From an uncultured Verrucomicrobiae bacterium (GTDB lineage Bacteria; Verrucomicrobiota; Verrucomicrobiia; Chthoniobacterales; JAATET01), in assembly GCA_963719495.1 (NCBI GenBank), contig CAVRCI010000001.1:64001-128000 (forward strand): DNA of 64,000 nucleotides, written 5' to 3'. Positions 29,181 through 47,137 of this stretch are shown here, in pieces. How positions within the stretch are numbered: the stretch's first letter is position 1; each line of letters begins with the position of its first letter. The translations under genes were made by a program, and so were the position numbers. The notes beneath the pieces were generated by a model that worked only from the letters and a program-made list of their open reading frames with translations, was not told where the DNA came from and did not search any database.

Positions 29181-29440
29181 GTGATTGGTGGCTGGTGAAT
29201 GGTGATTAGTGGAATGCGCCCACTAGCCGGCAACGGCGCTGGGGAACGCACGCGTCCCGCGTGCGAGATGCGGCGTCCCGCCGCATCACCCCGGCAATTC
29301 GAGCGAAGCGAGAGAGCCGTCCGCATCCCACCAATGCCTCGCTCGCTCCCGCTCGTCTCGCCCTTCGGGTCCCGCAGAGCCGGGAGCTGCCCCGAGCCTT
29401 CCCAGGCTCCGGTGCTCACCATTCACCCCTCACCAATCAC
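29181..29440 (+). repeat. inverted heptamer-array arms enclosing a family A REP cluster
   Basis: 29181-29205 and 29416-29440 are reverse complements at 22/25; REP module from 29241. Confidence 0.8.
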
Positions 29441-43206: not shown

Positions 43207-44031
43207 ATGGCCACCACCGCCGCTCCCACCACCCGCCGCCCCGCGAACCCCATCATCGCGTGGCTCCTTTCCTCCATCGGCAAAAAGACCGTCGTCGCCG
43301 TCACCGGACTTGCCCTCGTCGGTTTCGTCCTCGGCCACATGGGAGGGAATCTCACCTTCTTCTTCGGCCCCGACGCGATCAACGCCTACGCCATGCATCT
43401 GCATGACCTCGGCCTCTTCCTCTGGGTCATCCGCCTCGCCCTCCTCGCCACCGTCACGCTCCACATCATCTTCACGATGTTGCTCTGGAGGGAAAATCGA
43501 ACCGCCCGACCAACCGGGTATCAAGTCAAATCCCGCGTCCAGGCCACCATTTTCTCCCGCACGATGCGCCTCAGTGGGCTGATCCTCCTTTCATTCATCG
43601 TCTTTCACCTCGCCCACTTCACCGCGAAAATCATCTACCCATCTTACAGCACGCTCGAAGCAACCCTTCCCGACGGCCACGTCGTCAGCGACGTCTACGC
43701 CATGGTCACCATCGGCTTCAGCCACCCGCTCGTCGCGATTTTCTACGTGATCTCGATGGGCCTCCTTGCCTTCCACCTCAGCCACGGCATCTCGAGCCTC
43801 TTCCAAACCCTCGGCCTCAGTAACCGCCGGGTCTTCCCACTCTACCGCACCGCCGGACTCGCCCTCGCGTGGACCCTCTTCCTCGGCTTTTCCGCCATCC
43901 CGATCTCGGTCGGTGTCTTCGGCCTCGGCAAAACCTACACCGACAAGATGCACCCCAAGGCCCCGCTCAAAACGAGCTATCAGACTCCCGAATCGGATTT
44001 CAGCCGTATCTTTTTACGTCCATCCGTTTAA
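43207..44031 (+). CDS. sdhC: succinate dehydrogenase cytochrome b subunit
   Basis: SSIGKK.VVAVTG, GHMGGN, FIVFHLAHF, HLSHGISSLFQTLG. Confidence 0.93.
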   Translation: MATTAAPTTRRPANPIIAWLLSSIGKKTVVAVTGLALVGFVLGHMGGNLTFFFGPDAINAYAMHLHDLGLFLWVIRLALLATVTLHIIFTMLLWRENRTARPTGYQVKSRVQATIFSRTMRLSGLILLSFIVFHLAHFTAKIIYPSYSTLEATLPDGHVVSDVYAMVTIGFSHPLVAIFYVISMGLLAFHLSHGISSLFQTLGLSNRRVFPLYRTAGLALAWTLFLGFSAIPISVGVFGLGKTYTDKMHPKAPLKTSYQTPESDFSRIFLRPSV

Positions 44032-44049: not shown

Positions 44050-45966
44050 ATGACCCTCGACGCCAAAATCCCCGAAGGCCCGCTAGCCGACAAGTGGACC
44101 AATTACAAAAACAGCGCCAAGCTCATCGCGCCCAACAACAAGCGCAAATTCAAGCTCCTCATTGTCGGCACCGGCCTCGCCGGCGGATCCGCCGCCGCCA
44201 CTCTCGCCGAGCAGGGCTTCCAGATCGAATGTTTCTGCTACCAGGATAGCGCCCGCCGCGCCCACTCCATCGCCGCGCAAGGCGGCATCAACGCCGCGAA
44301 AAATTACCAGAACGACGGCGACTCCGTCTTCCGCCTCTTCTACGACACCATCAAGGGCGGCGACTTCCGCAGTCGCGAGGCCAACGTTTACCGCCTCGCC
44401 GAAGTCTCAACCTCCATCATCGACCAGTGCGTCGCCCAGGGCGTCCCGTTTGCCCGTGAATACGGCGGTCTCCTTGCGAACCGTTCGTTCGGTGGAGCCC
44501 AGGTCTCCCGCACCTTCTACGCCCGCGGTCAGACCGGCCAGCAGCTCCTCCTCGGAGCCTACCAGGAAATGTCCGCCCAAGTGGCCCGCGGTCAGATCAA
44601 GATGCATCCCCGCACCGAAATGCTCGACCTCGTCGTCGTCGACGGCCACGCGAAGGGCATCATCGTCCGCAACCTCGTCACCGGCGAAATCTCCGCCCAC
44701 GCCGGCGACGCCGTCCTCCTCTGCTCCGGCGGCTACGGCAACGTCTTCTACCTCTCGACCAACGCCAAAGGCTGCAACGTCACCGCCACCTACCGAGCCC
44801 ACAAGAAGGGCGCCCTCTTCGCCAACCCCTGCTATACGCAGATCCACCCGACCTGCATCCCGGTGAGCGGCGAATATCAGTCCAAGCTGACCCTCATGTC
44901 CGAGTCGCTCCGCAACGACGGACGCGTCTGGGTGCCCAAAAACGCCGAGGACACCGGCAAAAACCCGTCCGAAATCCCCGAGGACGCCCGCGATTACTAC
45001 CTCGAGCGCAAGTACCCGTCCTACGGCAACCTCGCCCCGCGCGACATCTCGTCCCGCTCCGCCAAGGAAGCCTGCGACAACGGCCTCGGCGTCGGCCCGT
45101 CCGGTCGCGGCGTCTACCTCGACTTCGCCGACGCCATCAAACGCCAAGGCGAGAACACGATCCGCGAAAAATACGGCAACCTCTTCGAGATGTACGCCGA
45201 GATCACCGACGAAAACGCCTACGAGCGCCCGATGCGCATCTACCCGGCGGTCCACTACACGATGGGCGGTCTCTGGGTGGACTACAACCTCATGTCCAAC
45301 GTCCCGGGCCTTCACGTCCTCGGCGAAGCTAATTTCTCCGACCACGGAGCCAATCGCCTCGGCGCCTCCGCCCTCATGCAGGGCCTCGCCGACGGCTACT
45401 TTGTGATTCCCTACACCATCGGCGACTACCTCACGACCCAGTTCGGCAAGGAGAAAGTCACCACCGACCACCCCGCCTTTGAGGAAGCCCTCGCGACAAC
45501 GAAGGCCCGCGTCCAGCAACTCATCGACATCAAGGGCACCCGCAGCGTCGACTCCTTCCACCGCGAGCTCGGCCTCCTCATCTGGGACAAGTGCGGCATG
45601 GCCCGTGACAAAGCCGGCCTCGAGGAAGCGCTTCAAAAAATTCCCGCCCTCCGCGAGCAATTCTACAAGGACGTCAAAATTCTCGGCACCGGCGAAGCGC
45701 TCAACCAATCGCTCGAAAAAGCCGGTCGAGTCGCCGATTTCCTCGAGTTCGGCGAGCTCATGTGCCTCGACGCCCTCACCCGCGAAGAAAGCTGCGGCGG
45801 CCACTTCCGGACCGAACACCAGACCGGCGAAGGCGAAGCCCTCCGCAACGACGACGACTACATGTATGTCAGCGCCTGGCAATACGGCAACGGCTCCGGC
45901 CACAAGCTCGTCAAGGAGCCCCTCACTTATGAGACCGTCCATCCGGCGACGCGAAGCTACAAGTGA
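44050..45966 (+). CDS. sdhA: succinate dehydrogenase/fumarate reductase flavoprotein
   Basis: [43 protein letters not shown]. Confidence 0.98.
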
Positions 45967-46245
45967 TGTTGTTGGTGTTTGGTTATTAGTTATTGGAGAT
46001 TCCGCATGTTCAACTTTGAGAAGCTCGACGCCTGGCATAGGGGAATTGATTTTGCCGATTTAATCTATCGTTCGACGAAGAGTTTTCCTCAGGACGAACG
46101 AAATCGCGAAACGCCAGGGATTTTTAAACGAGTCAGCGCACCGAGAAATTTATTCGCAAGCTGAAGTCTTGGGCAAAATGCTGAACAGCATGAAGTCGTC
46201 CTTATTGGCCAAATCCAATAACCAATAACTACCAACCAATAACAT
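45966..46245 (+). mobile_element. AT-richer cassette bounded by 32-nt inverted heptamer-repeat arms, between sdhA and sdhB
   Basis: 45966-45997 vs 46214-46245: 26/32 Watson-Crick plus 2 G.U pairs; ATG at both junctions; mobility is inferred, not shown. Confidence 0.6.
46006..46228 (+). pseudogene. four-helix-bundle protein (23S rRNA IVS-protein/Avd-like family) with internal deletion and frameshift
   Basis: 46006-46101 MFNFEKLDAWHRGIDFADLIYRSTKSFPQDER; +1 frame 46103-46228 IAKRQGFLNESAHREIYSQAEVLGKMLNSMKSSL; central QxRRAxxSxxxNIAEG segment absent. Confidence 0.8.
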
Positions 46246-47002
46246 GAATTTCACGATCAAGGCCTGGCGCCAACCGTCACCCAACGCCCACGGTGAACTG
46301 AAGACCTACCAAGCGAACTCCATCCCCCCCGAGGCCAGCTTCCTCGAGATGCTCGACATTCTCAACGAATCGTTGATCGAGCAGGACGAGGAACCCATCG
46401 TCTTCGAGCACGATTGCCGCGAAGGCATCTGCGGCTCCTGCAACCTCACGATCAACGGCATCCCGCACGGCAAGGACCGCGGAGTCGGCACGACCTGCCA
46501 GCTCTACATGCGGAAGTTTCAGGACGGCGAGACAATCAACATCGAACCATTCCAGGTCGGATCGTTCCCGGTCATGAAGGACCTCGCCGTCGACCGCTCC
46601 GCGTTCGACCGCATCATCCAAGCCGGAGGCTTCATCTCCGAGCGCAGCGGCTCCGCCCCCGACGCCAACGCCGTCCCGATTCCCAAGCCCATCGCCGACG
46701 AGGCCATGGACGCCGCCGCCTGCATCGGCTGCGGAGCCTGCGCCGCCGCCTGCCCGAACAGCTCCGCCATGCTCTTCGTCAGCGCCAAGACCGCGCACCT
46801 CAACCTCCTCCCGCAGGGAAAGCCGGAAAAGAACCGCCGCACCCTGGCGATGGTCCACCAAATGGACGCCGAAGGTTTCGGCAACTGTTCGAACTACTAC
46901 GAGTGCGAAGCCGTCTGCCCCGCCCACATCCCAGCCAGCTTCATCTCAAAGCTAAATCGCGACTACACCAAAGCCTCCCTAGCCCACAGCGCCGGAGCGT
47001 AA
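46244..47002 (+). CDS. sdhB: succinate dehydrogenase iron-sulfur subunit
   Basis: [38 protein letters not shown]. Confidence 0.97.
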
Positions 47003-47137
47003 GGGGAGCGCACGCGTCCCGCGTGCAAGATGCGGCGTCCCGCCGCATCACCCGGCAAATCGAGCGAAGCGAGAGAGCCGCACGTCAAGGAGCGGCGATT
47101 TGCAATCGCCGAACGAAACCAAATCGCCGAAGGCGAC
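47003..47137 (+). repeat. composite REP-like element family A+B
   Basis: Starts directly after the sdhB TAA; same modules as 4616 and 40486. Confidence 0.85.

Follow-up and report, generated by a model that had tools for sequence, protein, structure and literature searches.

What occupies the junction between the succinate dehydrogenase genes sdhA and sdhB of an uncultured Verrucomicrobiae bacterium, and how might the operon tolerate it? The window analyzed here (64,000 nt; positions 64,001 to 128,000 of contig CAVRCI010000001.1) contains, at 45967–46243 on the forward strand, a 277-nt insert that fills the whole space from the sdhA stop codon to the sdhB start codon. We consider it fairly probable that this insert is a decayed four-helix-bundle gene cassette with inverted heptamer arms, built like the intervening sequences (IVSs) of 23S rRNA, long held at this junction in Chthoniobacterales-like Verrucomicrobiota mostly by vertical descent, cleanly lost many times, and folding in the transcript into a stem at which RNase III would cut.

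The insert is bounded by two runs of degenerate heptamers. The left (5′) arm, at 45966–45997 on the forward strand, is G/T-rich (GTTGTTG GTGTTTG GTTATTA GTTATTG), and the right (3′) arm, at 46214–46245, is its C/A-rich complement; both were defined by repeat search, pairing count, and periodicity. The initial annotation had paired exactly these two runs, and the count was reproduced in full: 26 Watson–Crick pairs, 2 G·U pairs, and 4 mismatches in 32 positions, with the left arm beginning on the A of the sdhA TGA and the right arm finishing on the AT of the sdhB ATG. An independent repeat search recovered the same pair in a somewhat longer form (45961–45997 and 46214–46250, 37 nt, 78% complementary). 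The Smith–Waterman score of the arm pair is 34, compared with a mean of 18.0 and a maximum of 29 at 300 random genome positions. Additionally, self-similarity at a lag of seven is 0.67 in each arm, the highest value among lags 3–11, and this value was equalled in 27 and 9 of 5000 shuffles, respectively. The 7-base period claimed for the arms is therefore real, whereas the 7-mers proposed as their building blocks are not exact copies: the left arm has a single TGGTTAT, the right arm has three copies of CCAATAA, and the repeats are degenerate. In the minimum free energy fold of the RNA from 45950 to 46260, the arms are paired (−88.5 kcal/mol, z = −3.1, 0 of 100 shuffles as good). Deletion of 45966–46243 leaves AAGTG joined to ATGAAT, as had been predicted, and the enclosed DNA is indeed richer in A+T than its surroundings, with a G+C content of 0.43 versus 0.63 in the flanking sdhA and sdhB genes. 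Two features of an IVS are thus present in the window copy, namely terminal inverted repeats that enclose an open reading frame (ORF) as a stem and tandem heptamers within that stem. Pairing of the two runs would likely form a hairpin in which the sdhA stop codon comes to lie beside the sdhB start codon.

The loop carries the remains of a gene in two reading frames. Frame 1 (46006–46161) opens with MFNFEKLDAWHRGIDFADLIYRSTKSFPQDER, and its ORF continues out of register to a stop codon at 46162–46164, while frame 2 (46064–46225) closes with ...AEVLGKMLNSMKSSLLAKSNNQ. The N-terminal piece of the dead four-helix-bundle gene (residues 1–32) lies at 46006–46101 on the forward strand, and the C-terminal piece follows in the next frame at 46103–46228 on the same strand, with its TAA codon (46226–46228) inside the right arm. 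Against Pfam PF05635, the two pieces score 19.3 bits (profile positions 1–29) and 14.8 bits (profile positions 77–106), both below the 33.8-bit cut-off, and against TIGR02436 they score 12.7 and 16.1 bits versus a cut-off of 24 bits. Furthermore, an order-level hidden Markov model (HMM), built from 69 family relatives and searched against 81,250 six-frame segments of the genome, ranks the pieces 10th and 11th of all segments (E = 7.2e-6 and 0.016; the second piece covers HMM positions 84–123), with the next match at 0.55. A congener (G002) has an intact gene of 119 residues, P0001, at the same junction, which matches PF05635 at 131.6 bits. The N-terminal piece is identical to residues 1–32 of P0001 at 21 of 32 positions (E = 2e-15), and the C-terminal piece aligns with residues 82–115, with 12 of 34 positions identical and 23 of 34 positive (E = 9e-7). 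Because the pieces match the two ends of P0001 in two different frames, approximately 49 middle residues have been deleted and the frame has shifted. This deletion was mapped by protein comparison; global DNA alignment to intact orthologs misplaced the 3′ part, so the DNA break point is approximate. The solved structure nearest to P0001 is 2GSC (E = 9.6e-25), a homopentamer of four-helix bundles (PMC4990558). Collectively, PF05635, the order-level HMM, and the alignments to P0001 agree that the loop is, as first proposed, a four-helix-bundle gene remnant of the 23S rRNA IVS protein family. Under the cut-offs of the family HMMs the pieces do not qualify as a member protein, whereas by descent the remnant is the ortholog of an intact member at the same site. 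As judged from these alignments, the window holds a PF05635-family pseudogene and not a member protein.

To place the insert among its relatives, we surveyed 30 sdhA–sdhB junctions, one from this genome (G000) and 29 from relatives of the same order. A cassette is present at three of them: 277 nt in this genome, 464 nt with an intact gene in the congener G002, and 430 nt with weak arms and a poor-scoring gene in G013. Another 26 junctions are empty, their spacers ranging from −4 to 51 nt; the spacer is 5 nt long in two congeners (GTCCC and GTCTC) and 39 nt in a third, and in one relative the genes overlap at ATGA. Empty alleles had been expected and do exist, but the TGATG form expected for them was not found, as the spacers measure 2–51 nt apart from the one ATGA overlap. 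In the sdhAB tree, G002 is basal in the genus, and this genome groups with three genomes whose site is empty. A search of public genomes with P0001 returned 79 loci at 57–70% identity, mostly from metagenome-assembled genomes of Verrucomicrobiota and Planctomycetota. Nineteen of these 79 relatives lie between sdhA and sdhB, and a further two have sdhB on contigs that are truncated, so that 21 in all are counted at this junction; inserts of this kind are found there in many soil bacteria related to the present one. Within the protein tree, the sdh copies group together (7 label changes versus 20.3 in shuffles, 0 of 500 as low), and a single origin is compatible with the starred branches. Metagenome contigs approximately 88–90% identical to the window show an empty site in which 29 other letters exactly replace 45967–46242, another form with 531 letters between 45899 and 46244, and one arm that reads GTTGATG right after the stop codon; full cassettes are present among these contigs alongside the empty site. 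Intact alleles (G002 and 19–21 others), degenerate alleles (the window and G013), and empty alleles therefore coexist at sdhA–sdhB. We read the insert as an old, mostly vertically inherited occupant of the junction that appears to have been lost many times and to be dying in this genome, not as a recent arrival. The remaining junction of the survey (L036, G023:C16; 1 of 30) has a 725-nt insert of another kind, with an ORF and no arms noticed.

Cassettes of this build recur at other sites. This genome has nine PF05635 matches, and seven of the eight full-length genes are flanked by inverted arrays scoring 37–61 (random maximum 29, 300 positions), with the units TTAAGAA, GTCGGAAG, GGTGAAT, GAAATGN, GCGGATT, ATGATTT, and GAGGGNG, one for each gene. 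At the order level, 77 near-full-length copies come from 30 of 41 genomes, with 0–9 copies per genome among the 41, and 60 of the 77 have arms scoring above 29, 48 of these with period 7. As a null for the arm score, mismatched upstream and downstream pairs averaged 18.1 (95th percentile 25), and their maximum of 59 comes from related-cassette pairs. Similarly, 64 of the 79 public relatives of P0001 score above 29, and 57 of the 64 have period 7. An intact cassette measures approximately 440–460 nt; it begins with a G/T-rich array (three to five 7-mers) and a short leader, continues with a PF05635 gene of approximately 119 residues, and ends in a complementary C/A-rich array. In 55 of the 60 armed order-level cassettes, the 5′ arm is rich in G and poor in C. 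A few bases separate the arms from the stop codon upstream and the start codon downstream, and both neighbors are on the strand of the gene in 39 of the 60, a count that relies on crude flank gene calls (ORF length and GC3, the G+C content of third codon positions) and stands without a null. For the 14 strong-armed sdh copies, the median offset of the left arm relative to the last base of the stop codon is −2 nt, with TAG within the first unit (TAGTTGAGAG), and the median distance between the right arm and the following ATG is 1.5 nt (...CTCAACTA/TG). Because the arms abut both codons, stop and start face each other at the base of the stem, an arrangement that fits the idea of a stem that would keep the two cistrons juxtaposed. 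The counts for this genome, the order, and the sdh copies bear out the suggestion that family genes generally carry paired heptamer arms reaching the neighboring stop and start. The unit was also correctly described as lacking a transposase, and none lies inside the cassette in the window. Inspection by eye of the cassette borders, and of five hairpins that belong to one unit family, showed no target-site duplication.

Three individual loci of this class have unusual arrangements. At G003:C3:640663-641905 (L048/L051/L053/L055), a full family gene is followed by three tandem partial copies (profile positions 30–103) at a spacing of approximately 315–322 nt, which resembles local cassette amplification. 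At a metK-type junction (L063:1341-1938, G038), an extra inverted arm copy lies upstream of the gene, so two hairpins are possible. In this genome, the right arm of L007 (G000:C9:196052-196414; CAATCCG, four copies) runs directly into a biotin-carboxylase-like frame (…FTKILIANRGEIA) with no obvious ATG after the arm, and the start of that host gene may lie in or before the arm.

The heptamer of a cassette was compared with the lineage of its protein. GTTGA cores are present in 57 of the 64 strong-armed cassettes of the P0001 lineage, whose unit is GTTGA[G/T][A/G]; the consensus, taken over 114 units of the arms, has G at 97%, T at 85%, T at 83%, G at 93%, and A at 93%, followed by [G/T] and [A/G]. 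Relatives with an intact gene show three to five distinct GTTGAGN units. This unit persists across many flank contexts (70 flank-peptide clusters). One clade contains the sdh copies of G002 and G013 together with a G023 copy that lies between two pilT-like genes, plus the long-branched pair G015_C41 and G023_C20 (support 95/84). For 43 period-7 order cassettes, protein identity correlates negatively with unit distance among pairs from different contexts (Spearman −0.196; none of 2000 permutations reached so low a value), where some orthologs may remain among the pairs because context detection is incomplete. The left arm of the window copy has 0 GTTGA cores by count, no such core can be seen in the right arm when read as its reverse complement, and the four units of this copy, listed above, have changed on both arms together. 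Such a pattern is suggestive of arms that drift once the gene dies.

To describe the constraint on gene and arms, we compared orthologous cassettes. The ratio of nonsynonymous to synonymous substitution rates (dN/dS) is 0.04–0.18 across the 11 pairs at orthologous sites that allow an estimate of dS; the pair G023/G013, which involves the decaying G013 copy, gives 0.32. By this measure, the cassette genes are under purifying selection. Arms are 81–99% identical between congeners, whereas synonymous sites differ at 48–59%. At one site shared by this genome and G003, 75 of 76 arm positions are identical at a proportion of synonymous differences (pS) of 0.59, and at the gap-type junction arm identity is 81–89% at a pS of approximately 0.56. 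Because a MAFFT alignment of six orthologous cassettes mis-registered the repeats (one row on a second, inner arm copy; best register 116 of 177 cells paired), its repeat columns could not serve for covariation, and the arms were compared within and between cassettes instead. In deep ortholog sets, complementarity within a cassette exceeds the identity of arms between orthologs (0.90 versus 0.73, 0.91 versus 0.74, and 0.80 versus 0.59). Moreover, unit changes, for example from TTTTAAG to TTTTCAG, are present on all units of both arms in orthologs.

Based on these comparisons, a working of the cassette can be proposed. Because a scan of 45700–46500 found 0 promoter-like and 0 terminator-like sites, the cassette is likely transcribed with the host operon. 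In the transcript, the arms would form a stem of approximately 30 bp, with the stop and start codons facing each other at its base. RNase III, whose gene is present in the genome, would likely cut this stem, by analogy with the homologous cassette in the 23S rRNA of Coxiella burnetii, where the stem contains GACAGAT heptamer repeats and RNase III cuts there (PMC4990558). Cutting of the operon transcript at the stem is a reasonable expectation on this analogy; it would leave both host cistrons usable, so that the insert would cost little. The arms may be kept alike by a process that treats both strands equally, for example DNA-level correction between them. Finally, the cassette protein likely reads the heptamer of its lineage, which would account for a unit that is conserved more than synonymous sites. 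A broader version of this last step seems to us possible but doubtful: PF05635 proteins would be sequence-specific readers of lineage heptamers (here GTTGA[G/T][A/G]) both in their own arms and in gene-less satellite hairpins, and together these parts would constitute a widespread “spliceless intron” of operon spacers and rRNA helices, cut from RNA by RNase III and spreading by a transposase-free hairpin route. If true, this picture would account for the unassigned family of IVS proteins and for the surplus of heptamer repeats long noted in bacterial genomes.

Several observations weigh against an RNA-cut, vertically held cassette with a heptamer-reading protein. Selection on the sense RNA helix alone would favor G·U over A·C, so an excess of G·U is expected among the arm mismatches; none is seen on the sense strand, with 51 G·U versus 63 A·C in the 60 order-level cassettes and 47 versus 47 in the 64 relatives of P0001. 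Selection on the sense mRNA helix was consequently dropped as a demonstrated point, and the mRNA-level mechanism put forward in the initial annotation is not favored by this comparison. Some copies have weak arms or none that could be detected (17 of 77 at the order level, 15 of 79 among the relatives of P0001), and the co-orientation count has the rough footing described above. The abutment of arms and codons would follow equally from insertion into a very short operon spacer, and the correlation between unit and protein is also expected from plain co-inheritance with slow arm change and is no proof of recognition. The suggested drift after gene death comes from one dead copy, and arm identity is comparable in an ortholog pair of equal depth whose genes are intact (0.76 versus 0.72). 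Furthermore, no mobility enzyme was found, and no systematic search for a trans-acting enzyme was made.

The near-equality of the two mismatch types (98 G·U versus 110 A·C in all 124 cassettes) would be expected if the arms act only as DNA, that is, as a hairpin or cruciform substrate for insertion, clean excision, and arm-to-arm correction through replication template switching, with the RNA stem as a by-product. The spread of unit changes over all units of both arms in orthologs, the clean losses that leave congener spacers of 5–39 nt, and the gene-less inverted arrays with the same units scattered through the genome, two of them with near-identical loops at different sites, point in the same direction. 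We nevertheless regard an exclusive role in DNA as rather unlikely, as the homologous 23S rRNA cassette is experimentally cut as RNA by RNase III (PMC4990558) and a stem of approximately 30 bp is predicted by folding to form in any read-through transcript. Such a role would also leave the preference for co-directional operon spacers (39/60) and the purifying selection on the gene unexplained, and neither a recombinase nor a reverse transcriptase was found in this genome, which is 98.6% complete (PF00078, 0 matches). That selection (dN/dS 0.04–0.18), together with arms conserved more than synonymous sites, would instead suit a domesticated host module, in which the stem stabilizes or insulates the halves of the operon mRNA and the protein serves the host, for example as an RNA chaperone or a modulator of RNase III. 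Consistent with such a module, orthologous copies occupy the metK-type junction in three families of the order and the sdhA–sdhB junction in distant Verrucomicrobiota. However, copy number varies from 0 to 9 among related genomes, 26 of 30 junctions in close relatives are empty, the window and G013 copies are dead or dying, and the same cassette lineage occurs at unrelated junctions; domestication is decidedly unlikely on these grounds.

Two further explanations are far less probable still. Since every Pfam and NCBIfam match of the remnant is below its curated cut-off, the insert might be a common inverted repeat, or a regulatory hairpin of local origin, with its gene similarity due to chance. 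This reading is refuted by the order-level HMM, which places two colinear matches at ranks 10 and 11 in the genome, and by the alignment of both pieces to the same-junction ortholog P0001 of a congener (E = 2e-15 and 9e-7); moreover, the arm score lies above those of all 300 random positions. The likeness of PF05635 to Avd (PMC10053308) and the nearest solved structure, the pentameric four-helix-bundle protein 2GSC (E = 9.6e-25), might in turn suggest an Avd-type accessory of a diversity-generating retroelement, with the repeats as part of that system. In this case, the genome has no reverse transcriptase (PF00078, 0 matches, 98.6% complete), the neighbors are sdhA and sdhB, and no template/variable repeat pair was seen in the junction sequences read, which makes such an accessory very improbable.

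The decayed IVS-like cassette, the reading that we prefer, has its closest known counterpart in the ORF-bearing IVS of 23S rRNA from C. burnetii, and from Leptospira as cited in the same source. The two share a small four-helix-bundle ORF (S23p/PF05635) in the loop of a terminal-inverted-repeat stem, tandem heptamers (GACAGAT) in the stem by the ORF start whose number varies between strains, the absence of a transposase, and the decay of the ORF in some lineages (PMC4990558). In contrast, the host of the IVS is helix 45 or 25 of 23S rRNA (PMC4990558), whereas the host here is a protein-coding operon spacer. Excision by RNase III is reported in Coxiella and is a prediction here, and the available text of PMC4990558 describes neither non-rRNA cassettes nor lineage-specific units. 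No insertion was found in the single detected 23S rRNA of this genome, in which 2,848 nt are colinear with model positions 1–2925. The relationship of the family to rRNA IVSs and to Avd, which the initial annotation had named, is in print (PMC4990558, PMC10053308). For the Avd of BPP-1 (4DWL) and 2GSC, sequence and structural alignment suggests homology, and Avd is an essential partner in retrohoming (PMC10053308). The cassette protein has the fold family in common with Avd; in contrast, there is no genomic reverse transcriptase here, no template/variable repeats were seen, and the gene stands alone between heptamer arms. Avd binds nucleic acid.

Inverted pairs of heptamer arrays between bacterial genes (GGGAATC in Xanthomonas; PMC4692102), and hairpin repeats that resemble miniature inverted-repeat transposable elements, are similar to the present arms: tandem 7-mers in intergenic DNA face each other in pairs and can fold into stem-loops, and this genome has many gene-less examples with the units of its four-helix-bundle cassettes. 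In the present elements, no terminal target duplication was seen, and no transposase lies inside the cassette. The available text of PMC4692102, which treats the heptamer arrays of Xanthomonas and Nostoc, has no match to “four helix”, “intervening sequence”, or “S23”. The coexistence of allele states also invites comparison with mobile introns, for which the sdhA–sdhB junction offers all three states found in a homing cycle. Selfish introns and inteins pass through such a cycle, in which intact, degenerate, and empty alleles occur at one conserved site; here, in contrast, the tree fits mostly vertical descent. The cassette protein is not known to have endonuclease or splicing activity. In the full-text literature, with subscription journals and bioRxiv supplements beyond reach, no description of the cassette outside rRNA was found, and within that literature the claim of an undescribed system holds. 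What is new is an IVS-type cassette in an operon spacer; what is known are IVS-type cassettes in 23S rRNA.

ORF-bearing 23S rRNA IVSs have been an oddity for more than 25 years (PMC4990558). The present data place the rRNA cases as a small corner of a larger class, in which a gene and its heptamer arms form a unit in ordinary operon spacers, here within central metabolism. The class persists at one junction across deep divergence, under purifying selection and with a repeat unit that tracks the protein lineage. As a result, the label “function unknown” becomes testable in terms of a protein that binds its own heptamer array, cutting of the mRNA at the stem, and passage of ribosomes from stop to start. 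The window copy is a natural decay intermediate, with the gene broken and the arms paired but off-consensus.

The cassettes also offer a source for gene-less heptamer hairpins and solo arrays in this and other genomes. A scan based on Tandem Repeats Finder located 92 genome loci of inverted tandem arrays with a period of 5–10, of which the period-5 and period-6 pairs are mostly coding noise. Gene-less hairpins carry the units of five resident cassettes (GTGAATG, GATTGCG, AATGAGA, GTCGGAAG, and GTCGAGA) and also AGTTGAG, the unit of the dead sdh lineage, and two of them at different sites have near-identical loops (129 nt at 91%). Apart from the truncated copy L009, the order-level HMM found no further dead family remnants below E 0.5 genome-wide, and the loops of the gene-less hairpins are thus without detectable gene remains.

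Several such arrays deserve individual description. One gene-less hairpin lies in the window itself at 29181–29440 (G000:C1:93181-93440), with inverted GTGATTG/GTGAATG arms and a 209-nt loop, and its unit is that of the intact cassette at C1:196161-196663. Three further hairpins like it occur elsewhere in the genome, two with near-identical loops. Six solo arrays of the CCAATAAC type (G000:C7:10692-10720, C13:705644, C13:511769, C13:687184, C2:742789, and C1:349145) are 93–97% identical to the right arm of the window and have no inverted partner nearby; they may be leftover single arms. The array on C7 is preceded by a stop codon and followed by the ATG of a gatC-like gene. Additionally, this genome has inverted tandem arrays of period 8–10 (ACAGGATTA, CGCGAATGAA, CGCGAAGC, and CTCTGCGA) with short loops, for which there is no resident four-helix-bundle gene with a matching unit.

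Based on ORFs and profile matches, the host operon encodes a Bacillus-type succinate dehydrogenase/fumarate reductase, and all of its genes are on the forward strand. The first gene, at 43207–44031, encodes an sdhC-type cytochrome b558 subunit (TIGR02046, 181.3 bits; ORF). It is followed at 44050–45966 by the sdhA/frdA flavoprotein subunit (NF005749, 1165 bits; ORF), whose TGA stop occupies 45964–45966, and, beyond the insert, at 46244–47002 by the sdhB/frdB iron-sulfur subunit (NF005746, 394.5 bits), whose ATG occupies 46244–46246. Rfam has no family in the spacer, and its sole match, Xoo5 (E = 0.86), falls inside sdhA. Immediately past the sdhB stop codon, at 47003–47080, lies a copy of a short repeat (94.9% over 79 nt) that also fills the loop of the hairpin at 29181–29440. 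Used as a blastn query, this hairpin gives 220 genome-wide matches, and the repeat is thus an abundant dispersed element.

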